From contig CAXXLQ010000004.1 in the NCBI GenBank assembly GCA_963668695.2, positions 2,688,001 to 2,752,000 of the forward strand: a stretch of DNA of 64,000 nucleotides, given 5' to 3'. Origin of the DNA: Vicinamibacteria bacterium (GTDB lineage: Bacteria > Acidobacteriota > Vicinamibacteria > Marinacidobacterales > Marinacidobacteraceae). Both the position numbers and the translations under genes were made by a program. The notes under the pieces were generated by a model. It ran no database searches, was not told the origin of the DNA, and was given only the letters and a program-made list of their open reading frames with translations. Positions 1,192-59,812 of this stretch are shown piece after piece. Each line of letters starts with the position of its first letter. Position 1 is the stretch's first letter.

Positions 1192-1370
1192 CAGCCTGTG
1201 GTGGAACCCGGGTGAGCGCCGAGGCCGGTGAGGCGCCCGGCTGACAAGGCGCGTGAGGGAGGAATACCGGGTGTATTTCGACCGAAACGCAACGCAGAAC
1301 GCAGCGAAGCGGAGTGGTTCAGCCGGGATGGATCGCCGGCCGAACGCCGCCTGGGTTTCACCACCGGCTG
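1192..1370 (+). mobile_element. 179-bp MITE copy 1
   Basis: Ends CAGCCTGTGG / CCACCGGCTG; TTAG at 1188-1191 and 1371-1374; homologous to the other copies. Confidence 0.9.
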
Positions 1371-1380
1371 TTAGGACGGC

Positions 1381-1857
1381 CTACTGGACGTCCGACCCCG
1401 CCATCCAGCCAAGGAACGCTCGAACCTGCTCCTGGACCGTATCCAGTGTTTCGGGTAGTCGCTCTTCGAGAGCCCGGATGCGTTCCGCGTCCATCAGGTA
1501 TCCGTAGACATTCCGAAACGCGTGTCGAAAAGCGAGATATTCCTGAAGCCGGGCCGCGAGATCCGCAGTGATCAGGGCCCGACGAACTCCCGGGATTTCG
1601 AGGGCCATGTCTGTCACGAGCTGCCTGTGCCACTGCTCGCCCCGGGGCACTCCGCCGTCCACTTCGTCCGCGATCCGTCGAAACACCCGTTCGATTCCGC
1701 TGTAGAAGTCATGGAGGATCGAACCCCGGGCGCGCAAGCCGTACGTGACGTCGTCGCGTGGCGCCGCTGCCGCCTCTTCGCGCAGGGCGGCGAGATGATC
1801 GAGTTCGTTCTCGATCTCGACGATCAGACGCCGGGTGATCCTCTCCTCGGGGGTCAC
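1381..1857 (-). CDS. HEPN (HepT-like) ribonuclease toxin
   Basis: LHDFYSGIERVF, P.GEQWH, FRHAFRNVY motifs; overlaps upstream MNT gene. Confidence 0.8.
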   Translation of the reverse strand: MTPEERITRRLIVEIENELDHLAALREEAAAAPRDDVTYGLRARGSILHDFYSGIERVFRRIADEVDGGVPRGEQWHRQLVTDMALEIPGVRRALITADLAARLQEYLAFRHAFRNVYGYLMDAERIRALEERLPETLDTVQEQVRAFLGWMAGSDVQ

Positions 1858-6259: not shown

Positions 6260-9200
6260 ATGTCGAATCCACGGATCCGGCGTGGCGCCGGCTTTGCCGC
6301 TCTCGCCCTTGCCGCCGGGACGCTCCTCGGAGTCCCGGCTGCCGACGCCCAGTTTGCGCGCGCCAGTCTTGCCGGTACGGTCACCGACGCGGGCGGGCTC
6401 GCGCTTCCCGGCGTCACGGTCACCGCGACCAACGCCGATACCGGCGCCACCCGGGTGGTTACCACTTCGGGCAACGGGCGCTACGTCCTGAACGGGCTGA
6501 CTCCCGGCCCCTACAACCTGAGCTTCGAACTCTCGGCATTCCGTCCGGTCAGGCAGGACGGGCTCCAACTCGTGGTGGGGCAGGAGGCCAGTCTGAACGT
6601 CACCCTGGAACTCGGGGGCATCGAGGAGACGGTGGTGGTCACCGCCGAGGCGCCGGTGGTGGACGTGACCTCGAAGGAGGTTGGCGCCACGGTGACTACC
6701 GAAACCATGGAGTCGCTCCCGACCCAGTCCCGCAGCTTCATCGACTTTGCCGGCCTGATCCCCGGTGTGGTGCCCAACGTGGCCACCGCCTCCACCGCCG
6801 CCGACTCCATCTTCGTGAACGGCCAGGACAACAACAACAACTCGTTCAACGTGGACGGGGCGAACAACGACGACGACGTCATCGGTGGGAGCGCCGGAGC
6901 GCAGACGCGTACCGCGATCGAGGCGGTCCAGGAGTTCCAGATCCTCACCACCCAGTTCGACGCCGAGTTCGGACGTACCCAGGGCGGCGTGATCAACGCC
7001 GTCACGAAGAGCGGAACGAACAGTGTCCGCGGCACCGTTTTCTACTACCTGCAGAACGCGGGCCTCAACGCGAAGAACTTCTTCACCGAGCGCAACAATC
7101 AGGACCAGCCGGACCTGAGCTTCCAATCCGTCGGCGGCGTGATCGGCGGACCGATCATCCGGGACCGGTTCCACTTCTTCACCAGCGTGGAACGGCTGAC
7201 CCCGCAAGAGGGAATCGCCCGCACCTTCGAGACCCGCCCGGACCTCTCGTTCGTGACCACCGAGGACAACCTGCTCCGTAACCTGCTGCTGAAGTTCGAT
7301 TTCCAGATCAACGACAGCCACAAGGCGGCCATCCGCGGCCTCCAGGAATACTCCCCGCAGTACAACCAGATCATCGGCGATGCCACGACCCTGGAAGCGT
7401 CCCGCGAAGAGCAGGACACCGACACCAGCGTGATCGCCTCCCTCGACAGTGTGGTGGGCGACCGGGGCTTCAACAACCTGCGGGTGTCCTTCACCGAAGA
7501 GGACGTGGCGTTCGCCAACCCCGGGTTCAACAACAACGGCCAGACTTTCGAGGCGCAGCGCGCCCGCGCTGTCAGCCTTTCGCGGGACACCGTCGTCGAG
7601 GGGGCGAGCACCGTGGCCTCCCACCGTCTCAACCAGTCCTACCAGGTGGACGACACCTTTTCGATCTTCGTGCCCGATTGGGGAGGCGACCACAACATCC
7701 GCATGGGATTCAACTTCTCGCGGCGGTCGGTGGCGCGCAACAACTCTTCCACCGCGAACGGCCAGTTCGGTTTCGACACCGACACTTCCTGGAATCGGGA
7801 GGATCTCGCCACCTATCCGAACTGGTTCTCGGTACGCGTCGGGGGCTCCTCCGGCGAGAACGCCACGGTCCCCGACAACAACGTGTGGGGTCTTTTCTTC
7901 CAGGATGACTGGCAGCCCGCCGAGAATCTGACGTTGAACCTCGGCGTCCGGTGGGACAAGGAAGACCTGACCGACGACAACAACAACATCGGTCCACGGC
8001 TCGGCCTCACCTGGGATCCGACCGGAGAGGGACGGACCGCGGTCAAGGCAGGCTTCGGGCGCTTTTTCGAGCGGTTCCAGCTCGGCTTCTATGAGGACTA
8101 CTTCTTCGACGCCGCCCAGCTTCCCTTCGGGTTCACCACCCGGGTGCCGGGCGGGGGCAACGATCCCCAGATGTTCTGGGACATCGTCCACGGGAACGGG
8201 ATTACCTCGCTCAACGGCCTCCGGGACTTCGTCGCAAGCGATCTCGAGGCCAACAACACCGGAAGCCTCAACAGCCAGCCGACGGTGCCCTATCCGGGCC
8301 GGGTGACTCCCTACGCCGACACCCTGAGTATCGGCGTTCAGCACGAAATCCTCGCCGGCACCTCGTTCGGCATGGACTTCATCCACACCCGCAACCGCAA
8401 CGTGAACGTGGGGGCGGATCTGAATCCGTTCTCGCGCAGCCTCGGCGCGCGCCCGAACATCTCCATCCTGAACGGACAGCAGGTGAACCTCGGTTCGATC
8501 CGCACCTACCTGAACGCGGGCGAGAGCGACTACAACGGGCTGCAGTTCTCCCTGAGGCGCCGGTTCAGCGATTCCCCGATCGGGCGGATGAGCCTCACCG
8601 CTTCCTATACCGCCGCGTCCCAGAAGGGGAACGTGAACGCCGGCGGAGTGCCGGGTGCCCGCTTCCAGGCGTACCAGCCTGTGGTGGAACCCGGGTGAGC
8701 GCCGAGAGCAGCGAGGCGCCCGCCTGACAAGGCGCGTGAGGGAGGAATACCGCGTGTATTCCGACCGAAACGCAACGATGAGCGGCGCGAAGCGACGCGG
8801 TTCAGGCGGGATGGATCGCCGCTCGAACGCCGCCTGGGTTTCGCCACAGGCTGGTACACCCGGACGGGATACAACTTCGACACCGGCGAAGTCATCGGGG
8901 AGGCGCTCCAACTCAACATGGACGATCCGGCCAACACCGACCGCCCCTCTCCGTGGTTCCGCACCCACAACTTCGTAACCTCGTAGAGCTGGCTGGTGCC
9001 GGGAACTTCCTGGTCGGACAGCGCCGGGCTCTATGTGACCGGCATCTTCCGGTACCTCTCGGGCTCCCGTGACACTCTCGAGACGAACGACCGCGAGGAC
9101 AACAACCAGCGGATGGTCGCTCCGGCAGGGTCCTATAGCGCCAACCGCGACGCGGACATCGCCCGCAGCACCGACTTCGACGGCAAGATCAATGGGCTCG

Positions 9201-11874: not shown

Positions 11875-13061
11875 GACGTGGAAACGGCCTTGCGCCGGTG
11901 GCGGGCGTATTCGTCCTTGGACTGCTTGCGGCGAGCTTCGCCGCGGGACAGTCTCCCTACTTCCCGGAGCGCCACGACTGGCAGACGAAGACCCCCGAGG
12001 AGGCCGGGTTCGATGCGGCGCTACTCGAGGAAGCCGTGGAGCTCGCGGTGGCCTCGGAATCGGGCGCGCCCCGCGACCTGGCGCTCAACCATGAGTTGAC
12101 CTTCGGGAGCGAGCCCTTCGGGAGCCGCGTCGGACCGACCACCGTACGGGGCGCGCTGAGCGGCATCGTGGTGAAGGACGGCTACATCGTGCGCGAGTGG
12201 GGTCCCTCGGAGAAGGTGGACATGACTTTCAGCGTGTCGAAGACCTTCCTTTCGACAACGGTCGGCCTCCTCTACGACGCGGGGCTGATCGCCTCGGTCG
12301 ACGACCTGGTCGGTCCCTACATGCCGGACGACGAGCTCTTCGGCTCGGACCACAACGACTCCATCACCTGGGACCACTTGCTCCGCCAGACAAGCGACTG
12401 GCAGGGCACGCTGTGGGACAAGCCGGACTGGGCAGACCGCCCGGTGGGTGATCACCCCTTCGAGTACCCCGACCGGCCCATGTACGAGCCGGGAACTCAT
12501 TACAAATACAACGATGTTCGGGTGAACCTGCTTGGCCTGGCGGCGCTCCACGTGGTGCGCGATTCGCTCCCGGTGGTGCTCCGCGAGGGGATCATGGAGC
12601 CCATCGGCGCCTCGAATCGCTGGCGCTGGCACGGCTACGAGAACTCCTGGGTGATGATCGACGGGCGTCAGGTCCAGTCGGTGAGCGGCGGCGGCCACTG
12701 GGGCGGCGGCATGCACATCAGCGGCCGCGACCTCGCCCGTTTCGGCTACCTGTTCCTGCGGATGGGGAACTGGAAGGGCAAACAGCTCATCTCGGAGGAG
12801 TGGATCGGGATGGCCCGCACCCCCGGTGAAGTGAACCCGACCTACGGGTTCATGAACTGGTTCCTGAACGGTCCGGTCGAGCGGGACGGGGAGATGGTCA
12901 AGTCCATCCCCGACGCCCCGGACACCGCGGTGACTTTCCGCGGCGCCGGCAGCAATATCGTCTATGTGGACTGGGAGAACGACCTGGTGGTGGTCGTCCG
13001 CTGGATCGAGGGCGGCGCGGTGTCGCCGTTCATCGGGAAGGTGCTGGCGGCGCTTCGCTGA
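11871..13061 (+). CDS. Serine hydrolase, beta-lactamase class C-like
   Basis: SVSK (SxxK), HLLRQTS, YKYND, signal peptide. Confidence 0.88.
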   Translation: MRRGNGLAPVAGVFVLGLLAASFAAGQSPYFPERHDWQTKTPEEAGFDAALLEEAVELAVASESGAPRDLALNHELTFGSEPFGSRVGPTTVRGALSGIVVKDGYIVREWGPSEKVDMTFSVSKTFLSTTVGLLYDAGLIASVDDLVGPYMPDDELFGSDHNDSITWDHLLRQTSDWQGTLWDKPDWADRPVGDHPFEYPDRPMYEPGTHYKYNDVRVNLLGLAALHVVRDSLPVVLREGIMEPIGASNRWRWHGYENSWVMIDGRQVQSVSGGGHWGGGMHISGRDLARFGYLFLRMGNWKGKQLISEEWIGMARTPGEVNPTYGFMNWFLNGPVERDGEMVKSIPDAPDTAVTFRGAGSNIVYVDWENDLVVVVRWIEGGAVSPFIGKVLAALR

Positions 13062-13092
13062 GCGAGTTCCGCCCGCCCCTTCCGTGGGTTAA

Positions 13093-13271
13093 CAGCCTGT
13101 GGTGAAACCCGCGCGGCGTTCGAGCGGCGATCCATCCCGCCTGAACCGCGCCGCTTTGCGGCGCTCTGCGTTGCGTTTCGGTCGAAATACACTCGGTATT
13201 CCTCCCTCACGCGCCTTGTCAGCCGGGCGCCTCACCGCTCTCGGCGCTCACCCGGGTTCCACCACAGGCTG
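13093..13271 (-). mobile_element. 179-bp MITE copy 3 (inverted)
   Basis: TIRs; TTAA at 13089-13092 and 13272-13275. Confidence 0.92.
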
Positions 13272-13275
13272 TTAA

Positions 13276-13741
13276 CAGCCTATGGAAAAGTCACGCGGCA
13301 TTCCCGAGCCAAGAGGGATGGGGGCCGGGTGAGCCCGTCCCCCGTCCCTCTCGCTCCGGGGTCTCCGCGGTGCTGGCGCCCCGCTCCGGAAGCCCGAGCT
13401 ACGAAGGATGGACGTCGGCTAGCGCCGCCTCCCACCCCTCGTGCTCCGGGGTCTCCGCGGTGCTCACGCCCCGCTCCGGAAGCCCGAGCCAAGAGGGATG
13501 GGGGCCGGCTGAGCCCGTCCCCCGTCCCTCTCGCTCCGGGGTCTCCGCGGTGCTGGCGCCCCGCTCCGGAAGCGAACGGCGATGCATCCCGGCTGAACCG
13601 GGCAGCTACGCGGCCCTCATCGTTGCGTTTCGGTCGGAATACATCCGGGCCAGTTCTCCCGGTGGGGGCTCCTCCCTCACGCGCCTTGTCAGCCGGGCGC
13701 CTCGCCGTTCTCGGTGCTCACGTCACTTTCTCCACAGGCTG
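13276..13741 (-). mobile_element. MITE copy 4 (variant ends) with nested 3x90-bp repeat and one 19-bp motif
   Basis: CAGCCTATGG...CCACAGGCTG; flanks TTAA/TTGA; abuts copy 3. Confidence 0.85.
13303..13572. repeat. Three tandem 90-bp hairpin-rich units
   Basis: CCCGAGC at 13303, 13393, 13483; units 1 and 3 nearly identical. Confidence 0.9.
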
Positions 13742-13744
13742 TTG

Positions 13745-13925
13745 AGCGCCGACGTCGTAGAGGGGAATCCGCATCGCCTGGGCGGCCGTCACCATGCGGC
13801 GGTCCTAACTGGCGAGCCGGGCCGGCTGACGGCTATCCCACAAGTGGACCAGCGAAGCAATCTGCAACGCGACCAGTGTGCGGAGAGGCCCCGGAAACGG
13901 GTTGCGGCACGCCGGACACGCTCGC
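13745..13925 (-). pseudogene. PIN toxin C-terminal remnant, paralog of 18542-18943
   Basis: PFPGPLRTLVALQIASLVHL...RLAS*DRRMVTAAQAMRIPLYDVGAQ aligns with the intact VapC. Confidence 0.75.
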
Positions 13926-14027
13926 CGACCGCTCCGGGAAGCCGATGCCACGCAAGAGACGCTGCGCTGTAGAACCATGGGTCTCGTTGAAACCGCAGGA
14001 ATCCAGCCCTCCGTGTTCGGGAAAGTC

Positions 14028-16699: not shown

Positions 16700-17490
16700 A
16701 GCGGGTGACGGCATGATCGGGCGGCGGCGCGGGTTTCGGTATCGTCGGCTGGAATGCCGTCGGTGAATCTGACGCCCTGGATGACCCGGGGCAACTTCTC
16801 GTAGCCGTTAACAGCCTGTGGTAAAACCCAAGCGGCGTTCGGCCGGCGATCCATCCCGGCTGAACCACTCCGCTTCGCTCCGTTCTGCGTTGCGTTTCGG
16901 TCGAAATACACCAGGTATTCCTCCCTCACGCGCCTTGTCAGCCGGGCCCCCACCGGGAGAACTGGCCCCACCGGGAGAACTGGGCCTCGCCCCCACCGGG
17001 AGAACTGGCCAACCTCGGCGCTCACCCGGGTTTCACCACAGGCTGTTCAGACGGCGCCAGGTCCCGCTGGCCGCGGTGACCAGCTTGCCCGATCTTTTCC
17101 CCGCTCGCCCCCCGGTCCCGTGCCTTCGGCCGCCGCACCCGAACCGGTCCAATCCCCGTCAGGATCGCCCGCTCCGGGCCATGCCCGTGGTGCCCCAGAC
17201 GCCGACGGCCGCTCTCGGTCCGATGATCGCCATGGGCCGCCAGCAACGCCACCACCTCCGCTTCCACGGCTTGCCTCACCAACTGCCGCGCCCCGCTCGC
17301 TGAACCTCCGTCAGCGGATCCTCAACTCCCTCTGGTGGGGAAAGAAAAACAACGGTCTTTCCGTCATGGCGTATCACTCCTCCCTGGCGATGTGGAAGGT
17401 TGGTACCTCCCACGATACGCCACCCGCTTTCGGCCGTAGCCCACGAGGAAGACCACCCGAGAAACCTCATCTCTCCTTGGGTTACAGCTG
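16700..17490 (-). mobile_element. Internally deleted, frameshifted IS256-family remnant
   Basis: N-terminal EDPLTE...QAVEAEV...TGIGPVRVRRPKARDR joined to C-terminal KLVTAASGTWRRLN|GYEKLPRVIQGVRFTDG; catalytic core absent; ends approximate. Confidence 0.78.
16812..17045 (-). mobile_element. MITE copy 5 inside IS256 remnant, with three 18-19-bp motif insertions
   Basis: TIRs; flanks TTAA/TTCA; splits codons RRLN/GYEK. Confidence 0.9.
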
Positions 17491-37412: not shown

Positions 37413-37566
37413 GGGTTGTTCTCGCCGGGGAACGCGCATCCAGTTCGGCGACGCGATCGGTCAGGGGGCACCACCGGGAGAACTGGCGCCGGCCTCCAGG
37501 CCGTCTTCGCCCGCCGGCGGCGGGCGAGAACGCGTACTGCCCCGCGCCCTTAGCTGAACGGCAGTC

Positions 37567-45203: not shown

Positions 45204-45382
45204 CAGCCTGTGGTGGAACTCGCGTGAGCGCCGAGAGCGGTGAGGCGCCCGGCTGACAAGGCGCGTGAGGGAGGAATACCGGGTGTATTTCGACCGAAAC
45301 GCAACGCAGAGCGCCGCAAAGCGGCGCGGTTCAGGCGGGATGGATCGCCGCTCGAACGCCGCGTGGGTTTCACCACAGGCTG
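45204..45382 (+). mobile_element. 179-bp MITE copy 7
   Basis: Perfect TIRs; flanks CTAA/TTAA. Confidence 0.92.
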
Positions 45383-45561
45383 TTAACAGAGCCACTCCTG
45401 ATTGAAGGTCCTCCGGTCAGCACCTGAGCCAGGTGGAGTACCGGTTACGGCCGGCCCGGTTCGACGGGCGGAGGCTCGCCGGCCGCAGGTCAGCATCCGG
45501 TCCCATCTCGGGCGCGCCGCTGGACCCGGAACGCGGGATACTTTTCCGCCGAGGTATTCCC

Positions 45562-50624: not shown

Positions 50625-50637
50625 TCACCCGCATCAG

Positions 50638-50834
50638 CAGCCGGTGGTGAAACCCATGCGGCGTTCGGCCGGCGATCCATCCCGGCTGAACCGCGTCGCT
50701 TCGCGCCGCTCATCGTTGCGTTTCGGTCGAAATACACCCGGGCCAGTTCTCCCGGTGGGGGCTCCTCCCTCACGCGCCTTGTCAGCCGGGCGCCTCGCCG
50801 GCCTCGGCGCTCACCCGGGTTCCACGACAGGCTG
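50638..50834 (-). mobile_element. MITE copy 8 (197 bp, one motif insertion)
   Basis: TIRs; flanks TCAG/CTAG; TAT replaced by 21-bp motif. Confidence 0.88.
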
Positions 50835-50851
50835 CTAGCGGGGAGCGCGCC

Positions 50852-53000: not shown

Positions 53001-53038
53001 GGAACGCCGGCCAGTTCTCCCGGCGGGGGCCTCCGGCC
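53001..53038. repeat. 38-bp repeat, inverted partner of 53895-53932
   Basis: 33 of 38 positions match the reverse complement of 53895-53932. Confidence 0.75.
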
Positions 53039-53077: not shown

Positions 53078-53579
53078 AGCGTGGAGTTCCACCCGCTACA
53101 GCGTGGAGTTCCCGCCAACAGACCCCGCCAGAGCGTGGAGTTCTCGCCAACAGACCCCGCCAGAGCGTGGAGTCTCGCCAACAGCGGCCAGCGTGGAGTT
53201 CTCGCCAACAGACCCCGCTACAGCGTGGAGTTCGCGGCCAGCGTGGAGTTCTCGCCAACAGACCCCGCTACAGCGTGGAGTTCCGCGGCTCCAGCGTGGA
53301 GTTCTCGCCAACAGACCCCGCCAGAGCGTGGAGTTCCGCGGCTCCAGCGTGGAGTTCCGCCAACAGACCCCGCTACAGCGTGGAGTTCGGCGGCTCCAGC
53401 GTGGAGTTCCCGCCAGCAGACCCCGCCAGAGCGTGGAGTTCGGCGGCTCCAGCGTGGAGTTCCCGCCAACAGACCCCGCCAGAGCGTGGAGTTCGGCGGC
53501 TCCAGCGTGGAGTTCCCGCCAGCAGACGCCGCTACAGCGTGGAGTTTCCGCCAACAGGCCCTACCACAGCGTGGAGTTC
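53078..53579. repeat. 19-copy AGCGTGGAGTTC array with a 53-bp higher-order unit
   Basis: Cores spaced mostly 21 and 32 bp alternately. Confidence 0.92.
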
Positions 53580-53604
53580 GGCAAAAAAGCGCCGGATTCC
53601 GCGG

Positions 53605-53679
53605 TGGTGGGCGATGCAGGATTTGAACCTGCGACTTCTACCGTGTGAAGGTAGCACTCTTCCGCTGAGTTAATCGCCC
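53605..53679 (-). tRNA. tRNA-Val (anticodon CAC)
   Basis: GGGCGAT acceptor stem, CTACC-TTCACAC-GGTAG anticodon arm, GGTTCAAATCC T-loop, encoded CCA. Confidence 0.97.
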
Positions 53680-53740
53680 GTTGCCGGGTGCTGCCGGGGC
53701 GATGCGGACTGACGTCGCGCCCCGGCGGCCGAGGGCTGGG

Positions 53741-53769
53741 ACGCTAGCAATCCGCCCGGTTTCCGTCAA
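53741..53769 (-). promoter_or_regulatory. Sigma70-type promoter of tRNA-Val
   Basis: TTGACG-17 bp-TAGCGT on the minus strand. Confidence 0.7.
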
Positions 53770-53894
53770 CCCGTCACGAGAGGACGACCGTGCGCGCTCG
53801 CCCGCCGGCGGCCAGCGGCCGGCCTTCCAGGCCGTCCCCGCGCTTCTTCTCGATCAACCGTACGCGGTTTCGCGGCCCTCCGGGCCGCGGTGCC

Positions 53895-53932
53895 GGTCTG
53901 AAGCCCCCACCGGGAGGACTGGCCGGCGTTCC
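53895..53932. repeat. 38-bp repeat, inverted partner of 53001-53038
   Basis: Contains CCCCCACCGGGAGGACTGGCC. Confidence 0.75.
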
Positions 53933-53948
53933 CTCGCCCTACCGCTTC

Positions 53949-55364
53949 CTAGGAGATCTCCACCTTCATCATGTTCGTGGCGCCACTCAGTTGGTGGGTG
54001 CCGCAGACGAGCACGAGGCGGTCGCCGGAGGCGATATAGCGTTCTGATCGGAGCTGGTCCAAGGCCTTTTTGAGCATTTGATCGGTGGTTCGGAACCGCC
54101 GGTTGCGCATGGGGCGGACGCCCCAACGGAGCGCCAGGCGTCGAAATACGTGCTCGGAAGTCGTGAATCCGAAGATCCCGCACCGCGGCCGCATCCGGCT
54201 GACCTGACGGACGGTGGCTCCGGAATCGGTGAAGGCGACGATGTAGGACGCGTCGATCGTGGCGGCGGCCTCGCGCGCCGCGGCGGCGATGGCGTGTTCT
54301 ACGCGGCTCCGGTCGATCAGGGCCTGGTAGTGGGGCCGTTCGCCGAAGTCCGCATGCTGCTCGGTATAGGTGGCGAGGCGGTCCAGCGTGCGTACGGCCT
54401 CGATGGGGTACTCCCCGACGGACGTTTCGCCGGAGAGCATTACGGCGTCGCTTCCGTCGAGGATCGCGTTTGCGACATCGGAGGCCTCGGCCCGGGTAGG
54501 CATCGGATGCGAAATCATGGAGTCCAGCATCTGGGTGGCCGTAATCGCGATCTTGCCCCGCGAATTCGCCTCGCGAATGATCCATTTCTGGACGATGGGA
54601 ACCCGCTCCGAGGAGGTTTCCACTCCGAGGTCACCACGAGCGACCATCACCCCGTCCGAGACCTTGAGAATCTCGTCGAGGTTCTCGAGAGCTTCGGGCC
54701 TCTCGATCTTGGCGATCAGCGGTATGTCCTCCCGATCCATCCGGGCGAGCAACCCGCGGACAGTCTCGACGTCCCGCGCGCGCTGCACGAAAGACACCGC
54801 GAGATAGTCCACTCCCGCGGCAACCGCCGCCTGCAGGTCGGCGCGGTCCTTGACGGTGAGCGAGGGACCGGAAAGGGGTACCCCGGGCAAGTTGAGGCCC
54901 TTCCGGGAAGACAGGATGCCTCCCACCACCACTTCGGTCTGCACGTCCCCGTCTGCTGCCTTGAGAACCCGGAGTTTGAGGAGGCCATCGTCGATCAGGA
55001 TGAAATCCCCGGGGCGCACGTCGCGGGCGAGCTGGGGGTACGTTGTCGAAACGGTATCCGCAGTTCCCTCGATGGCCCGGGAGGTGATTACGAACCTGGT
55101 TCCCGGCTTCAGTTCGACTCCTCCTGCCGGCACCTCGCCGGTCCTCATTTTGGGACCAGCGAGATCCGCGAGCGTGGCCACCGCGCGACCGGCCTTGCGA
55201 GCGGCGCGGCGCACGATTCGCACGCGTCTCTGCAGGCTCCCCGCGGTCTCGTGTGCGCAGTTGAGACGGGCCGCGTCCATTCCGGCGTCGACGAGCGCCT
55301 CCACGGCGGCTGCGGAGCGCGTTACCGGACCCAGGGTGGCGATGATCTTCGTTCGGCGAAACAT
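53949..55364 (-). CDS. pyk: Pyruvate kinase
   Basis: RRTKIIATLGP, IAKIE, MVARGDLG, ATQMLDSM, PTRAEASD. Confidence 0.97.
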   Translation of the reverse strand: MFRRTKIIATLGPVTRSAAAVEALVDAGMDAARLNCAHETAGSLQRRVRIVRRAARKAGRAVATLADLAGPKMRTGEVPAGGVELKPGTRFVITSRAIEGTADTVSTTYPQLARDVRPGDFILIDDGLLKLRVLKAADGDVQTEVVVGGILSSRKGLNLPGVPLSGPSLTVKDRADLQAAVAAGVDYLAVSFVQRARDVETVRGLLARMDREDIPLIAKIERPEALENLDEILKVSDGVMVARGDLGVETSSERVPIVQKWIIREANSRGKIAITATQMLDSMISHPMPTRAEASDVANAILDGSDAVMLSGETSVGEYPIEAVRTLDRLATYTEQHADFGERPHYQALIDRSRVEHAIAAAAREAAATIDASYIVAFTDSGATVRQVSRMRPRCGIFGFTTSEHVFRRLALRWGVRPMRNRRFRTTDQMLKKALDQLRSERYIASGDRLVLVCGTHQLSGATNMMKVEIS

Positions 55365-55369
55365 GGAGG

Positions 55370-56077
55370 CTAACCGGGTTCCGGGGTGGTGGATGAACCC
55401 GTCGCCCGCGGTTGCAGCACCGTCAGCAGGACCTTCACACTCGCGAGGAAAGAGCCGGTGAGCGTTTCAACCCGCCCGGTTGCCCCGCGCGCTCGCCGGC
55501 TGGAAACCGGAACTTCCACCGAAGGGATTCGGGCTCGGGCGGCATTCACCTGCATCTCGGCGAGCCAGCCGAAATCCGGGTCCGACAGTCCCAATCGGGG
55601 AATCACCTGCCAACGAACCGCCCGGAAGGGGCCGAGGTCGGTGAAGCGATATCCGTACAGGAGCAGGATGAGGCGGGTCGCGATCCAGTGTCCGACCCGA
55701 ACCAGGCTCGGGTAGGCGCCGGGGTCGGGTTCACCCCGGCTGCGGGACCCCATCACGAAGTCCACGGCCGGAGAAAAAAGTGGAGACAGCACGGCGGGAA
55801 GTTCCTCGGCATCGTCGGCGCCGTCGCCCCGAAGGAACACGACGACATCGGGAGGCTCGGCGGCGAGGTGGACCATCCCCGCGAGGCAGGCGCGCCCGTA
55901 TCCCGGGCGTGGTTCCTCCACGGGCGTCGCCCCGTACTGGCGCGCCGGCTCGACGATATCGGCGCCCGGGCCCCCGACGACCACGATCCGCTCGAGATGG
56001 CCGTGGGGAAGCGCCGCCAGCACGCGGGAGAGTTCCGGCCCGCCGGCAGGTGCGGGAATGATCGCCGCCGTTCGCAA
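55370..56077 (-). CDS. GT2-fold glycosyltransferase-like protein with degenerate motifs
   Basis: GYGRAC, VMGSR, FTDLGPFRA, EMQV, EVPV; TTG start inferred. Confidence 0.8.
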   Translation of the reverse strand: MRTAAIIPAPAGGPELSRVLAALPHGHLERIVVVGGPGADIVEPARQYGATPVEEPRPGYGRACLAGMVHLAAEPPDVVVFLRGDGADDAEELPAVLSPLFSPAVDFVMGSRSRGEPDPGAYPSLVRVGHWIATRLILLLYGYRFTDLGPFRAVRWQVIPRLGLSDPDFGWLAEMQVNAARARIPSVEVPVSSRRARGATGRVETLTGSFLASVKVLLTVLQPRATGSSTTPEPG

Positions 56078-56129
56078 TGGCTCTTCAGTCTCGTTTCGCG
56101 GGGGCAGTATACGAGGCTGTTCCCGTAGG

Positions 56130-57773
56130 ATGGACGCCGTGAACGACCTGCCGATCCGATTCCGATTCCTCCTGGTCGCCGCGGCGGCGCTCGCTGCCGC
56201 CTGTTCGAACGGCCCGCCACCGGAGGGTGAAGCGGGACCGGCGGTCCTCTTCCGGGACGGCCGGATCCTCGATGGGACCGGAAACCCCTGGTATCTGGGG
56301 GATGTGCTGGTGGTGGGTGACCGCATCGCCCGCGTTGGCGTCATTCCCGCCGAAGAGGTTCCGGCCGGCGCGCGCGAGGTTGAGGCTGCCGGGCTCACCA
56401 TCATGCCCGGCTTCATCGATCCGCACTCGCACGCGGGCCCGGGGCTTGCCACTCCGGAACTGCGGGCCGGGGAACCGGTGATCCGGCAGGGGATCACCAC
56501 GGTCATGGTGAATCCGGACGGCGGCGGCGAGGTGGACTTGGCGGAGCAGGGCCGCAGTCTCCGCGAAGGCGGGATCGGGGTCAATGTCGCGCTCATGATC
56601 GGCCATGGGGCGGTACGGCGCGAGGTGCTCGGCATGGAGGACCGGCCGCCGACCGAGGAGGAACTCGAGCGGATGGCCGGGCTCGTGCGTTCGGGAATGG
56701 AGGCCGGAGCCTTCGGGATGACCGGAGGCCTCTACTACGCCCCGGGCAGCTATGCGGCGAACGACGAAGTGGTGCGGCTCGCCGCCGAGATCGCGCCGTT
56801 CGGCGCCTTCATCAGCCATATCCGGGATGAAAGCGATTACAACATCGGTCTGGTCGCCGCCGTCGAGGAAGTGATCGAGGTGGCGGAGACCCACGGCATC
56901 CGCGGCGTGGTGACCCACTTCAAGGCGCTCGGTCCGACGGTCTGGGGTCTCAGCCGGGAGGCGACGGCCGCCATCGATGCGGCGCGGGCCCGCGGGGTGG
57001 AGGTCTTCGCCGACCAGTACCCCTACGAGGCGTCCGGAACCAGCATTGTCGGAGCGCTCGTTCCGCGTTGGGCGCTCGCGGGCGAAACGATGCCGGGGAT
57101 GCCTTCTCCGCTCGAGAATCGGCTACACAGTCCACCGGAGCGCGCGCGCCTGAGGGCCGAGATGCTGGTCGCCCTGGAGCGGCGGGGCGGCGCTGACACG
57201 CTGCTCCTCTCCCGCCACCGGGCCGATACCGCGCTCGAAGGGCGATATCTGAGCGACCTCGCGGAGGAGTGGGACCTCGAGCCCATTGATGCGGCTCTCC
57301 GCCTGCTCGACGCGGGCGGCGCGGGGCTGGTGTCCTTCAACATGTCGGAAGAGGACATCGCCCACATCATGACCCGCGAGTGGACGATGGGTTCCTCGGA
57401 CGGCGGCCTCGTTCCCGCGGGCGAGGGACGGCCGCACCCGCGCTACTACGGCGCGTTTCCACGGCGGATAGCCCGTTACGTCCGGGAGCGGGGCGTGCTC
57501 ACGCTCGCGGAAGCAGTGCGCGGGATGACGAGTCTGCCGGCGACGGTGTTCCGTATGCCCGACCGGGGACAGGTGGCGCCGGGGCGGATCGCCGATCTGC
57601 TCATCGTGGACGTGGGCGGGTTTCGGGACGTTGCCACCTACGAAGACCCCCACGCTCTCGCCGAGGGGATCGTGCACGCGTTGGTGGCCGGCGTCTTCGC
57701 AATCGAGGACGGCGAGGCAACCGGAGCGCTGGCCGGACAGGTGCTGACCCCTCACTGGATGGACAGCGAATGA
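56130..57773 (+). CDS. N-acyl-D-amino-acid deacylase family lipoprotein
   Basis: PGFIDPHSH, SHIRDE, DQYPY, SSDG, HPRYYGAFPR. Confidence 0.92.
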   Translation: MDAVNDLPIRFRFLLVAAAALAAACSNGPPPEGEAGPAVLFRDGRILDGTGNPWYLGDVLVVGDRIARVGVIPAEEVPAGAREVEAAGLTIMPGFIDPHSHAGPGLATPELRAGEPVIRQGITTVMVNPDGGGEVDLAEQGRSLREGGIGVNVALMIGHGAVRREVLGMEDRPPTEEELERMAGLVRSGMEAGAFGMTGGLYYAPGSYAANDEVVRLAAEIAPFGAFISHIRDESDYNIGLVAAVEEVIEVAETHGIRGVVTHFKALGPTVWGLSREATAAIDAARARGVEVFADQYPYEASGTSIVGALVPRWALAGETMPGMPSPLENRLHSPPERARLRAEMLVALERRGGADTLLLSRHRADTALEGRYLSDLAEEWDLEPIDAALRLLDAGGAGLVSFNMSEEDIAHIMTREWTMGSSDGGLVPAGEGRPHPRYYGAFPRRIARYVRERGVLTLAEAVRGMTSLPATVFRMPDRGQVAPGRIADLLIVDVGGFRDVATYEDPHALAEGIVHALVAGVFAIEDGEATGALAGQVLTPHWMDSE

Positions 57774-57791
57774 CGACGAAAGGAGAACCCC

Positions 57792-59177
57792 GTGAACCGT
57801 GAATCCGCGATCGCCGAGACGATCCTTGAAACGGTAGGAGAAACACCGCTCGTCGGCCTCCGGCGCATTGGCCGGGGGCTCCCCGGGCGGGTCGCCGTGA
57901 AGATGGAGTCCTTCAATCCCGGCGGATCCGTCAAGGACCGCATCGCCATCACCATCGTTGAGGACGCGGAGCGCAGCGGTGCGCTCAAACCCGGAGGAAC
58001 GATCATCGAGGGCACCTCGGGAAACACCGGCATGGGTCTCGCGCTGGTCGCGGCGGTGAAGGGCTACCGGTCGATCTTCGTGATGCCGGACAAGATGAGC
58101 GACGAGAAGATCCGGGCGCTCCGGGCGCTCGGCGCCGAGGTGGTGGTGACGCCGACGGCGGTGGAGCCCGAAGATCCGCGCAGCTACTACAGCGTGGCGA
58201 AGCGCCTCGTGGAAGAAACCGAAGGAGCTCTCTACGCGAACCAGTACCACAATCCCGTGAACCCGGAGACCCACTACCGCACGACCGGGCCCGAACTCTG
58301 GCGGCAGGTAGGGCCCGAGATCCACACCCTGGTCTGCGGTCTCGGGACCGGGGGCACCGTCAGCGGGATCGGCCGCTACCTGAAGGAGCAGAACCCGGAG
58401 ATCCGGGTCGTGGGCGCCGACCCCGTGGGTTCGCTCTACGAGGAATACTTTCGCACCGGGAAGGTGGGTGAGGCCCGGAGCTACAAGGTGGAGGGAATCG
58501 GCGAGGACTTCATCCCGTCCACCATCGACTTCGCGGTCATCGACGAGGTAATCCAGGTCACCGACCGGGACTCCTTCCTGATGACCCGCCGGCTCGCGCG
58601 GGAGGAGGGGCTCTTCGTGGGTGGCTCCGCGGGGACGGCGGTAGTGGCGGCGCTCGAGGCGGCGTCGCGAGTTCCTCCCGGGGCGCTCGTGGTGGTCCTC
58701 GCTCCCGATTCCGGCGGGCGGTACCTCTCCAAGATCTTCAGCGACGACTGGATGCGCCAGAACGGCTTCCTGGAACCCGCGCGCGAAGACGCGAGGGTCG
58801 GCGACGTGCTCGCCGCCAAGGGCGGCCAGGAGATCCTGAGCGTTCCCCAGACGGCGGGAGTCCGCGAAGCCGTGACGCTGATGCGGAAGCACGACGTGTC
58901 GCAGCTTCCGGTCCGGGACGAGGACGGTTTCGTCGGGGTCGTTACCGAGGCTTCGCTCCTCGAGGGCCTCTTCTTCGGCGGCGCCAGCCGGGGCGAGGAT
59001 CAGGTCCGCGCGTTTATGAAGACGGACAAGATCGCGTCGGTGGACGTGGACAGTCCCCTCGACGAGTTGGCGCAGATCTTCGCCGGGGGCAGGATCACGG
59101 TGGTGACCGAAGAAGGCCAAGCCGTCGGCTTGCTCACCCCGATCGATCTGCTCGACTACCTCTCGCGGGAAAGCTAA
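57792..59177 (+). CDS. Cystathionine beta-synthase with C-terminal CBS domains
   Basis: NPGGSVKDR, TSGNTG, GTGGT, YKVEGIGEDF; CBS pair. Confidence 0.92.
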   Translation: MNRESAIAETILETVGETPLVGLRRIGRGLPGRVAVKMESFNPGGSVKDRIAITIVEDAERSGALKPGGTIIEGTSGNTGMGLALVAAVKGYRSIFVMPDKMSDEKIRALRALGAEVVVTPTAVEPEDPRSYYSVAKRLVEETEGALYANQYHNPVNPETHYRTTGPELWRQVGPEIHTLVCGLGTGGTVSGIGRYLKEQNPEIRVVGADPVGSLYEEYFRTGKVGEARSYKVEGIGEDFIPSTIDFAVIDEVIQVTDRDSFLMTRRLAREEGLFVGGSAGTAVVAALEAASRVPPGALVVVLAPDSGGRYLSKIFSDDWMRQNGFLEPAREDARVGDVLAAKGGQEILSVPQTAGVREAVTLMRKHDVSQLPVRDEDGFVGVVTEASLLEGLFFGGASRGEDQVRAFMKTDKIASVDVDSPLDELAQIFAGGRITVVTEEGQAVGLLTPIDLLDYLSRES

Positions 59178-59799
59178 CAGCCGGTGGTGGAACCCGGGTG
59201 AGCGCCGAGGCTGGCCAGTTCTCCCGGTGGGGGCGAGGCCCAGTTCTCCCGGTGGGGGTCCGGGTGACAAGGCGGGTGAGGGAGGAGCCCCCACCGGGAG
59301 AACTGGCCCGGGTGTATTCCGACCGAAACGCAACGATGAGCGGCGCGCAGCGACGCGGGTAACAGCCGGTGGTGGAACCCGCGTGAGCGCCGAGGCCGGC
59401 CAGTTCTCCCGGTGGGGGCGAGGCCCAGTTCTCCCGGTGGGGGTCCGGCTGACAAGGCGGGTGAGGGAGGAGCCCCCACCGGGAGAACTGGCCCGAGTGT
59501 ATTTCGACCGAAACGCAACGCAGAGCGGCGCGCAGCGACGCGGGTAACAGCCGGTGGTGGAACCCACGTGAGCGCCGAGGTTGGCCAGTTCTCCCGGTGG
59601 GGGCGAGGCCCAGTTCTCCCGGTGGGGGTCCGGCTGACAAGGCGCGTGAGGGAGGAGCCCCCACCGGGAGAACTGGCCCGAGTGTATTCCGACCGAAACG
59701 CAACGCAGAGCGCCGCAACACGGCGCGGTTCAGCCGGGATGCATCGCCGCTCGAGCCCCCACCGGGAGAACTGGGCCGCCTGGGTTCCACGACAGGCTG
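59178..59799 (+). mobile_element. Tandem MITE array (two truncated 185-bp units plus one full unit) at the CBS stop codon
   Basis: CAGCCGGTGG starts at 59178, 59363, 59548; one right TIR; flanks CTAA/TTAA; 10 motif insertions. Confidence 0.9.
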
Positions 59800-59812
59800 T
59801 TAAGAACGGCGA

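Follow-up and report, generated by a model that had tools for sequence, protein, structure and literature searches.

The stretch analysed here (hereafter the window) comprises 64,000 nt of contig CAXXLQ010000004.1 (positions 2,688,001 to 2,752,000) in assembly GCA_963668695.2 of a Vicinamibacteria bacterium of the family Marinacidobacteraceae. It harbors an intergenic array of a miniature inverted-repeat transposable element (MITE) in which the 18-nt word CCCCACCGGGAGAACTGG, which we refer to as M, is present ten times. Searches allowing up to 2 mismatches revealed 18 matches to M on the two strands of the window, 15 of them exact, compared with 0.01 expected from 100 shuffles; ten lie within 59215-59774, and the others start at 13650, 16948, 16966, 16991, 37469, 50743, 53011 and 53905 (Table 1). 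An initial annotation of this sequence, which had counted about 18 copies and regarded the word as an oligonucleotide inserted repeatedly into DNA, had placed them within 1-2 nt of these positions. Nearly all copies are embedded in other repeats, M is restricted to a single family of Vicinamibacteria (Acidobacteriota), and its behavior in this sponge-associated bacterium is that of one of the smallest known mobile DNA units.

The repeated part of the array (59175-59716) consists of 2.9 copies of a 185-bp MITE segment with three M copies per unit, at the MITE positions that we call sites A and B on the minus strand and site C on the plus strand; site D occurs once (59757-59774). Since the MITE segment is tandemly repeated, the ten copies do not represent ten separate events. 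The same intergenic site varies among related genomes. It holds one MITE with site D alone filled in G004 and two MITEs in G001, whose orientation is opposite to that in G004 and in the source genome (G000), so that either one target has received insertions more than once, independently, or an inversion has taken place. In most other members of the genus (e.g., G005 and G010), the alignments flanking the array nearly abut, and the array is apparently missing.

Table 1 Copies of M and host repeats in the window, and IS110-family copies in a related genome (slashes mark junctions)
Feature	Position	Strand	Context or evidence
MITE array	59175..59800	.	intergenic; ten M copies; MITE right end included
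M, exact, MITE site A, first of ten in array	59215..59232	-	word match
Other M copies of the array (starts)	59240, 59289(+), 59400, 59425, 59474(+), 59585, 59610, 59659(+), 59757(+)		word match
Two M, head to tail, no spacer, exact, MITE site B	16948..16983	+	word match, repeat search
M at MITE site A, 7 nt (GCCTCGC) past the tandem pair	16991..17008	+	word match
M at site C of a MITE fragment	13650..13667	-	word match
Complete MITE with one M (50743-50760, - strand, site C)	50632..50840	.	whole MITE absent from G001 ortholog
M (A13G variant) at the loop-stem junction of a palindrome of the REP-like type (see text), GCCGGTCTGAAG/M/CCGGCGTTCC	53905..53922	+	just downstream of a - strand gene
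M (1 mismatch) adjoining GGAACGCCGG, REP-like context	53011..53028	-	word match
Decaying M (CACCACC...), REP-like, …GGTCAGGGGG/M/CGCCGGCCTCCAGGCCG	37469..37486	+	between convergent genes
MITE, all M sites empty, terminal inverted repeats CAGCCTGTGGTGGAACCC…, TTAG either side	1192..1385	+	alignment
Empty MITE, GTAC either side, absent at G001 orthologous site	8672..8857	+	alignment
Empty MITE, TTAA-flanked, reverse orientation	13088..13282	-	alignment
Empty MITE	45204..45392	+	alignment
IS110-family copies in G014	G014:C1 around 1243k, 1347k, 1517k, 2616k, 2705k		

The G000 assembly (4,095,246 bases in 4 contigs, 67.5% GC) is partly redundant. The first ~148 kb of contig C4 (13.6-148 kb) are ~99% identical to its last ~130 kb (3.78-3.91 Mb), and contigs C1 (144 kb) and C3 (31 kb) match C4:304-421 kb and C4:3.505-3.538 Mb, respectively, at 97-99.6% identity. 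These parts resemble haplotigs from a mixed population more than plasmids; such redundancy would account for the 9.3% 'contamination' of the assembly, and it inflates raw repeat counts by ~7%. Non-redundant counts were taken on positions 1-3,780,405 of C4, and gene calls and MITE-site calls come from crude scripts of our own. M occurs in the whole assembly 1,288 times exactly and 1,631 times when up to 2 mismatches are allowed; counts for the non-redundant chromosome are 1,198 (exact), 1,463 (up to 1 mismatch) and 1,525 (up to 2 mismatches), or 0.40 per kb. The commonest 14-mers of the genome are those of M (1,366 occurrences), and the next ones (551, 472, 399 and so on) are pieces of the host MITE. 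Strand usage is equal genome-wide, the orientation of M shows little bias relative to the direction of neighbouring genes, and 1,149 of the 1,631 copies lie outside our crude open reading frames (ORFs), which span 83% of the genome. The copies form 601 clusters of at most 15 members, 259 of which are singles, and the distances between successive copies are quantised (18, 25, 49, 56, 71 and 98 nt), with a conserved spacer for each. Both near flanks were free of repeated 16-mers in 35 of 1,630 copies (12-mers are useless for judging flank uniqueness in 67% GC DNA), and by eye most of these 35 resemble repetitive extragenic palindromic (REP) sequences. The intergenic regions bearing M proved too numerous for the flanking genes to serve as a pointer to function.

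A replication-orientation bias is expected of single-strand transposition. With the origin and terminus set by GC skew, M shows none between the replichores (118 vs 123 copies outside the MITE, 661 vs 623 within it). An apparent polarity in G018, where only plus-strand copies seemed to be present over 1.8 Mb, was an effect of how the rows were listed; the real numbers are 108 forward and 112 reverse.

The conservation profile takes in all 18 nt of M, continues leftward with GC (87% each) and rightward with S-C-C, and becomes a mixture beyond; M is the core of a 20-23-bp unit, GC-CCCCACCGGGAGAACTGG-SC, with sharp edges. Comparison of the two ends by sequence gave no inverted ends, and the flanks show no target-site duplication (TSD), host bases being replaced instead. 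M with its flanks has no predicted fold of its own (-2.9 kcal/mol, z -0.30), nor does it have one within a REP-like host (z +1.0 and +1.7); folding was seen only for inverted pairs of M (z -5.9). A double variant, CCCTACCGGGAGAACCGG (C4T plus T16C), recurs in G000, G018, G019-type contexts and G023 and looks like a second cross-genus sub-family.

The main host of M is a MITE of ~190 bp with terminal inverted repeats (TIRs) CAGCCTGTGGTGG… (CAGCCTGTGGTGGAACCC…) and 4-bp flanking repeats (TTAG, GTAC and TTAA), a combination that we take to be the IS5-family pattern; seven DDE_Tnp_1 genes are present in G000. G000 and the 95%-identical G001 differ in the presence of whole MITEs (window 8672-8857 and 50632-50840). 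Of the 1,631 M copies, 1,371 (84%) are associated with this MITE; they are carried along by it and also spread through tandem duplication and exchange among MITEs, so most copies are not separate insertions. Thus, the claim of a repeatedly inserted oligonucleotide holds as regards a discrete ~20-nt module found at many positions, and fails for the bulk of the ~1,500 copies, which arose passively as MITEs transposed and as their segments were duplicated in tandem.

Alignment of filled and empty copies confirmed the four insertion positions named in the initial annotation (A-D) and added two more, E and F, in the G000 MITE; the four motif-free MITEs that it had listed (Table 1) are real. Read on the strand of M itself, site A changes on filling from GCCTC/A/CCGGCC to GCCTC/GC-M/CCGGCC, site C from GGGAGGA/ATA/CCGGG to GGGAGGA/GC-M-C/CCGGG and site D from GGCCGA/AC/GCCGC to GA/GC-M/GCCGC; site B (CCGGGC//GCCTC) receives M or a doublet, and at sites E and F, TG and GC, respectively, are replaced by CC-M. 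The inserted unit is SC plus M, sometimes plus C, i.e., ~20 nt in exchange for 0-3 host nt, with a net length change of 18, 19 or 20 nt, and the commonest target is an A before CCGG. These junctions bear out the earlier description of insertion in both orientations with no TIR or TSD and with replacement of 0-3 nt. Bases beside M sometimes differ between filled and empty copies (GGGC vs GGAC, GCCC vs GTCC).

Numbers of empty and filled copies are 259/281 for site C, 168/303 for D, 112/170 for A, 296/195 for B, 41/45 for F and 26/1 for E. The filled copies of site B comprise 70 single, 124 double and 1 triple insertions, compared with 131 doubles in the whole genome, and the first M of the site B doublet is usually the A13G variant; the head-to-tail insertion noticed earlier in the window is an exact doublet. 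Among the 376 of 646 MITE cores that were callable at sites A-D, all 16 combinations of filled and empty sites are present, with r2 values of 0.002-0.15. Filled and empty states thus flip often, and the four sites of each 190-bp MITE assort almost independently, each being about half filled. The alleles themselves are uniform: a gapped pattern recovered 81 empty copies of site C, all of them GGA-ATAC-CGGG in type (76 exactly) and none GGAGC-CC, and at least 228 filled copies share one junction, AGGGAGGAGC/M/CCCG.

Outside the MITE, 241 copies of M are spread over several families of REP-like palindromes. One such palindrome reads GCCGG-TCTGAAGA-CCGGC followed by GTTCC, with TGTGAACA as an alternative loop; the two main loops are represented by 44 and 34 empty copies and by about 45 copies with M, and further related REP-like contexts also bear M. 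On filling, GAAG/A/CCGGCG becomes GAAG/GC-M/CCGGCG; the GAAC loop and the GCCG/A/CCGGAGG type follow this rule too. The flanks resemble those in the MITE: GTCAGCCGGGC/M at site B is similar to the REP-type GACAGCGGGC/M, GGAGC/M is common to site C and REP-types, and CCGG follows M at sites A and C, in REP-types and in a nested copy described below. Sites outside the MITE therefore exist, both in these palindromes and in contexts of other genera, and being independent they speak against descent of all copies from a single MITE variant, an alternative that the initial annotation had itself named.

A further repeat of ~200 nt opens with the first 14 nt of M (CCCCACCGGGAGAA ACCCTCATGATCGGG…) and closes in a REP-like palindrome. 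It is found at G000:C4:327.5k, 383.6k, 605.1k and 2362.1k, in dozens of copies in G001, G004 and G008, and in pieces in low-M genomes; it lacks a long ORF and matches nothing in Rfam. M was considered as the end of an insertion sequence (IS) on account of this repeat and rejected as such, since the repeat shares with M its start (5' 14 nt), its other end being a REP-like palindrome rather than the 3' end of M.

M itself is gained and lost at orthologous places. Comparison of G000 with 856 kb of G001 (199 alignments of at least 1.5 kb) gave 532 gaps of at least 8 nt, 77 of which overlap M, including 11 of the 31 gaps of 18 nt and 7 of the 14 gaps of 36 nt, in both directions and within orthologous MITEs; some of these gap rows are counted twice via redundant contig ends. 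Haplotype pairs (276,878 aligned columns) contain 75 gaps of at least 5 nt, and the 12 that overlap M correspond to about 8 distinct differences consisting of M only. The haplotypes concerned are about 98-99% identical, and where no second gap is nearby, their flanks differ at 0-4 of 120 positions. One such difference, of 19 nt, lies in a REP-like palindrome just past a gene, outside any MITE. The site orthologous to window position 53905 holds an exact M in G004, a decayed one with 3-4 substitutions in G014 and G011, and a palindrome with no M in G007; at the ortholog of 37469, the copy in G001 is canonical and that in G000 is decayed.

Other repeats in the window vary as well. The whole repeat cluster at 13055-13993 is missing at the orthologous place in G001; a 90-nt tandem repeat of 3.0 copies (13303-13573) lies between a MITE and the M-bearing MITE fragment. 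A 53-nt (or 105/158-nt) tandem array on AGCGTGGAGTTC… (53132-53551) adjoins a tRNA gene (53608-53679, minus strand), the only match of the window in Rfam, and arrays of the AGCGTGGAGTTC type vary in unit number between haplotigs.

At up to 1 mismatch, M was found in all 15 other genomes of the genus and in 20 of 24 family members, representing 5 of 7 genera, and was absent from all 16 genomes of two sister families (among them G033, flagged unpublished). Copy numbers in the 21 carriers range from 1 to 1,566 (G000, 1,566; G004, 776; G001, 747; G008, 692; G018, 259; G012, 8; G020, 1), and four family members (G017, G021, G022 and G024) have none. In a wide database scan, 76 of the 80 M loci listed belong to Acidobacteriota/Vicinamibacteria records; the other four are single matches in unrelated taxa, roughly what our own arithmetic gives as chance for an 18-mer in 596 billion bases. 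Among the matches listed, the titled M-bearing records are metagenome-assembled genomes of Candidatus Marinacidobacterium sp., Vicinamibacteria bacterium and Acidobacteria bacterium. The collection of viral contigs yielded 1 M-bearing stretch, and this near-absence gives no sign of a phage source. A literature search found no description of the repeat or of Marinacidobacterium among the matches listed, supplements aside.

The MITE is more widely distributed than M. Its empty form matches all 15 other genomes of the genus, including those with little M (178 first-look candidates vs 15 M in G010), and weakly matches 7 of the 16 sister-family genomes, all of which have 0 M. This distribution, which includes M-free genomes, indicates that the MITE is older and the filled state derived. 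G014, whose genes are ~80% identical to those of G000, holds the same two main variants of M. In other genera, M occupies different positions: of 25 copies sampled in G019, 20 lie at GGCGGG/AT/GCATCG of a diverged MITE, and in G018, M lies at GCGCC/TT/GTCAGC and in a palindrome of that genus's own, GCCGGACTCCAGTCCGGC. The single M of G020 is at site C, again in a diverged MITE. G018 also has, in 6 of 37 contexts sampled, CCCC-GC-M-CCGGGAGAACYGG, which reads as M at A/CCGG within another M; these nested forms may represent one amplified event or a slipped duplication, and G000 has no nested M.

Public sequencing runs were also compared. Part of window 54000-59100 is present in 20 of the 24 listed run rows, all as contigs, and contigs from sponge-metagenome runs match genes near M at about 98-99% identity. 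Contigs of 4 of the 24 runs, aligned on 53580-59180, are uninformative on M itself, the REP-like stretch recruiting many copies; loose contig ends after 53903 read ACCGGCGTTCCC, the empty form of the palindrome from other loci. RNA contigs among the listed runs showed no transcription of M.

The junction sequences further identify M as the specific landing site of an IS110-family insertion sequence, an association that is new here. In G014, all 5 aligned copies of an identical 1,724-nt IS110-family element (Table 1) sit at one position inside M, four in REP-like contexts and one at MITE site D. The junction is …GAGC CCCC / TATACGATCGG … CGTGGAAAGT / CC ACCGGGAGAACTGG…, with CC on both sides; the ends of the IS are TATACG… and …GGAAAGT, M being the target and not the end. 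A search of 41 genomes, G000 among them, for junctions between the IS ends and M (up to 3 mismatches) found them in 6, each a member of the genus: 5 exact plus 2 variants in G014, 5 in G009, 3 in G004, 1 each in G001 and G006, and 1 plus its haplotig in G000. None occurs in the 25 genomes outside the genus. The left non-coding end of the IS contains CCGCCGGGAG and GAGCCCC as well as a further, exact occurrence of the right terminus CCGTGGAAAGT, which suggests that this end carries a candidate bridge RNA; an Rfam search with it gave nothing meaningful, the one match being a chance one at E 0.36. These left-end and core features fit the account in PMC11208160, according to which IS110 elements are devoid of TIRs, use repeats such as REP as targets, undergo recombination about a short core and have a guide RNA in the left end. 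One preprint reports that IS621 mainly excises a single-stranded circle and makes half-match off-target insertions, and another that ISPpu10, described as trans-acting, has all its insertions in one conserved stem-loop repeat.

The IS110 link explains what reads M, not how M multiplies. The sole IS110-family match in G000, a 428-aa frame (C4:480899-484372), lies inside a REP-like palindrome and not in M (…GGAGGTC / TATACCC … AGAAGGTC / CGGCGTTCC), with two M copies 400-500 nt upstream, and the one IS end-M-like junction of this genome has 3 mismatches. Among the relatives, IS110 presence does not correlate with M number; G003 and G011, with 65 and 87 M, have no IS110 match in their fragmented assemblies. 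Searches of G000 for other candidate enzymes gave 0 matches to the RAYT domain (Y1_Tnp, PF01797; 2 candidates scored, and a control search matched 6 of 14 known genomes), no match and 0 first-look candidates for reverse transcriptase (RVT_1), and one TnpB match below the cut-off. No family of transposase-like ORFs with at least 3 copies at 70% identity was found in G000, the families seen being tandem paralogues and haplotig duplicates. Genes for Ku and an ATP-dependent ligase are adjacent (C4:290988-291521 and C4:291902-292435).

These data raise a key question: by what process does M enter and leave its sites? In the best reading, M is a small-dispersed-repeat-like module that is spread passively and by copying between repeat copies, and we tentatively attribute, with somewhat less than even confidence, both the flips and the rare new entries to copy-from-another-copy repair in hairpin-prone repeats. 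The flips would be short-tract ectopic gene conversion among hundreds of repeat copies, with long homology within MITEs; they are read as copying between copies because the same junction or allele pair recurs every time. Rare entry into a new context would follow a stalled fork or a break in a hairpin-prone repeat, repaired from an M-bearing copy that may be chosen through a few bases of flank similarity, and neither a free oligonucleotide nor a reverse transcriptase would be necessary. Several observations weigh against this account. The ends of M are base-identical in at least 12 contexts whose right flanks share little (CCGG, GCCG, CGCT, GCAT, GTCA), whereas template switching at microhomology should leave ragged ends or donor flank. 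The exact 18-mer and its minor variants (A13G; C4T plus T16C) recur across genera with visibly diverged MITEs, which points to a conserved factor recognising M or to recent transfer between lineages. Orthologous copies of M do not evolve faster than the adjoining DNA: in 41 ungapped ones, M has 0.015 differences per site vs 0.041 and 0.057 in the flanks, a comparison biased by the choice of near-canonical G000 copies. Gene conversion is, moreover, inferred from patterns rather than from tracts of co-converted markers. In a different process, the ~20-nt unit would be excised or copied and inserted in trans by a sequence-specific enzyme, with a preference for hairpin-prone repeats and A/CCGG; this enzyme could be a bridge recombinase of the IS110 family, acting on a tiny single-stranded circle, or another one. 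We consider such a process possible, although unlikely. It would account for the constant size and the identical ends in every context, for the A-before-CCGG rule at two REP-like loop types, at MITE sites A and C and in M itself, and for the recurrence of the exact sequence and shared variants across genera; the IS110 elements of the genus recognise M precisely and, like M, have no TIRs and TSDs, and the circle, half-match insertion and trans action reported for IS621 and ISPpu10 would provide precedents. However, M is the target of IS110 and not its end, and the presence of IS110 does not track M number, G000 having the most M and one IS110 domain match. A net change of 18-20 nt with replaced host bases is unlike conservative site-specific recombination; conservative insertion of a fixed circle at site C is in fact ruled out by the missing GGAGC-CC empty allele and the net changes of 18, 19 and 20 nt. 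Near-50% occupancy and free assortment fit exchange better than one-way insertion, and G000 has neither the replication-strand bias nor a Y1/RAYT gene found in it. The boldest form of the idea, in which M would be the smallest mobile DNA yet seen, a ~20-nt single-stranded piece moved in trans, possibly by an IS110-type bridge recombinase, into A/CCGG of hairpin repeats and seeding landing pads for its partner IS, strikes us as improbable.

The initial annotation had also proposed a protein-binding site under strong selection. In one sense this is true, as IS110-family elements target M sequence-specifically; the view that selection or drive keeps M as a recognition site for a DNA-binding protein or as an uptake sequence, its contexts reflecting repeated recruitment, appears to us quite improbable. 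The exact 18-mer is conserved over five genera of the family with few shared 'dialects', and it is mostly intergenic, which speaks for such a view; yet copies vary from 1 to 1,566 among carriers and are zero in four family members, they are strongly clustered (601 clusters) and mostly inside one MITE, copies at orthologous sites appear, vanish or decay, and orientation bias is nil for replication and little for transcription. Moreover, a word of 18-23 nt cannot arise by point mutation, so that a step of insertion or copying is needed in any case. The mechanism first proposed, capture of an oligonucleotide at double-strand breaks by end joining, the oligonucleotide being RNA-templated (by a reverse transcriptase or retron-like product) or a released fragment, would explain the loss of 0-3 target nt, the lack of TSD and the occasional differences in M-adjacent bases between alleles, and the Ku-ligase pair (C4:290988-292435) would be at hand for it. 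We nevertheless hold it very unlikely: templating finds no reverse transcriptase domain or candidate in G000; end-joining capture predicts variable junctions, and those of site C are uniform in both the empty (81/81) and the filled state (at least 228); M is almost never in unique DNA (35/1,630), no free 20-mer source was found, and viral contigs are almost devoid of M. As for amplification of a single M-carrying MITE variant from which all copies descend, the 84% share of the MITE and the site B pair, which looks like one amplified event (124 of 131 doubles), are what it would lead one to expect. It can hardly be reconciled with all 16 four-site combinations at r2 of at most 0.15, with the 241 copies in several REP-like families, with the other positions used in other genera and with M-only differences between near-identical haplotypes, and we give it almost no credence.

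A unit of this size is usually set aside as a motif; in the present case, an 18-mer is the commonest word of a genome and optional at many defined positions. It is read by a family of RNA-guided recombinases now used in genome engineering, and an IS110 element with a spreading repeat as its landing pad is a natural case that bears on the finding of safe sites. Genomes of the family with 1 to 1,566 copies, complete ones among them, allow a direct comparison of gain, loss and accompanying genes.

Several known systems share features with M. DNA uptake sequences are known from Neisseriaceae (DUS) and, as uptake signal sequences (USS), from Pasteurellaceae. M is like them a short exact word with ~1,000-2,000 copies on both strands, with family-wide dialects and often in inverted pairs after genes; unlike them, it varies 1,000-fold in copy number, clusters in a MITE, has a greater length (18-23 nt) and reaches a site through insertion or copying rather than point mutation. 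The bacterial interspersed mosaic elements (BIMEs) of E. coli, described by Gilson et al., combine REP palindromes (palindromic units, PU) with short non-palindromic linker motifs between them. M resembles BIMEs in its mosaic intergenic clusters of few short modules with fixed spacings and alternating orientation, but its place, unlike that of the linkers, is within a MITE and within palindromes at their loop-stem junction; it is also found alone and can be missing from any of its positions. M differs from a MITE in being devoid of TIRs and TSDs, both of which its ~190-bp host element has. REP sequences and the REP doublets forming hairpins (REPINs) are moved by RAYT (Y1 HUH) transposases, as stated in PMC3116915. 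Like them, M is high-copy, short, mostly extragenic, family-specific and an IS target, whereas it is not a palindrome, is found in G000 with no Y1_Tnp gene in the genome and shows no replication-strand bias. Among IS110 elements, IS621 is reported to target REP, and ISPpu10 a stem-loop repeat that is conserved and intergenic (PMC11208160 and the ISPpu10 preprint); M is similarly split by an IS, with the core CC on both sides, and differs from both in not being itself a palindrome.

By the features tested, M is thus not a REP/REPIN, a MITE or an uptake sequence, and the closest described system is that of the small dispersed repeats (SDRs) of Nostoc and its relatives. Elhai and colleagues reportedly described, in 2008, eight Nostoc families (SDR1-8) with units of ~20-27 nt, embedded in repeats including mini-transposons and some of them self-nested; these are said to be confined to one coherent taxon and to have been judged mobile, with no mechanism given, SDR4-6 sharing a fold. 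To our knowledge, cyanobacterial SDRs are the only described parallel to M, and a mechanism for them has been lacking since 2008. One later paper quotes SDRs as 'some 20 bp long ... which might be mobile', and another reports no SDR-like repeat outside Nostocaceae among HIP1-rich cyanobacteria. M differs from SDRs in its occurrence in Acidobacteriota and not cyanobacteria, its unrelated sequence and its lack of a predicted fold, as well as in the replacement of 0-3 host bases, the flipping of filled and empty states, apparently through exchange between host repeats, and its use as an IS110 landing site. It is like them in size, dispersal, embedding in other repeats and mini-transposons, and restriction to one taxon, and possibly also in self-nesting, if the 6 of 37 contexts in G018 are more than one event or slippage.

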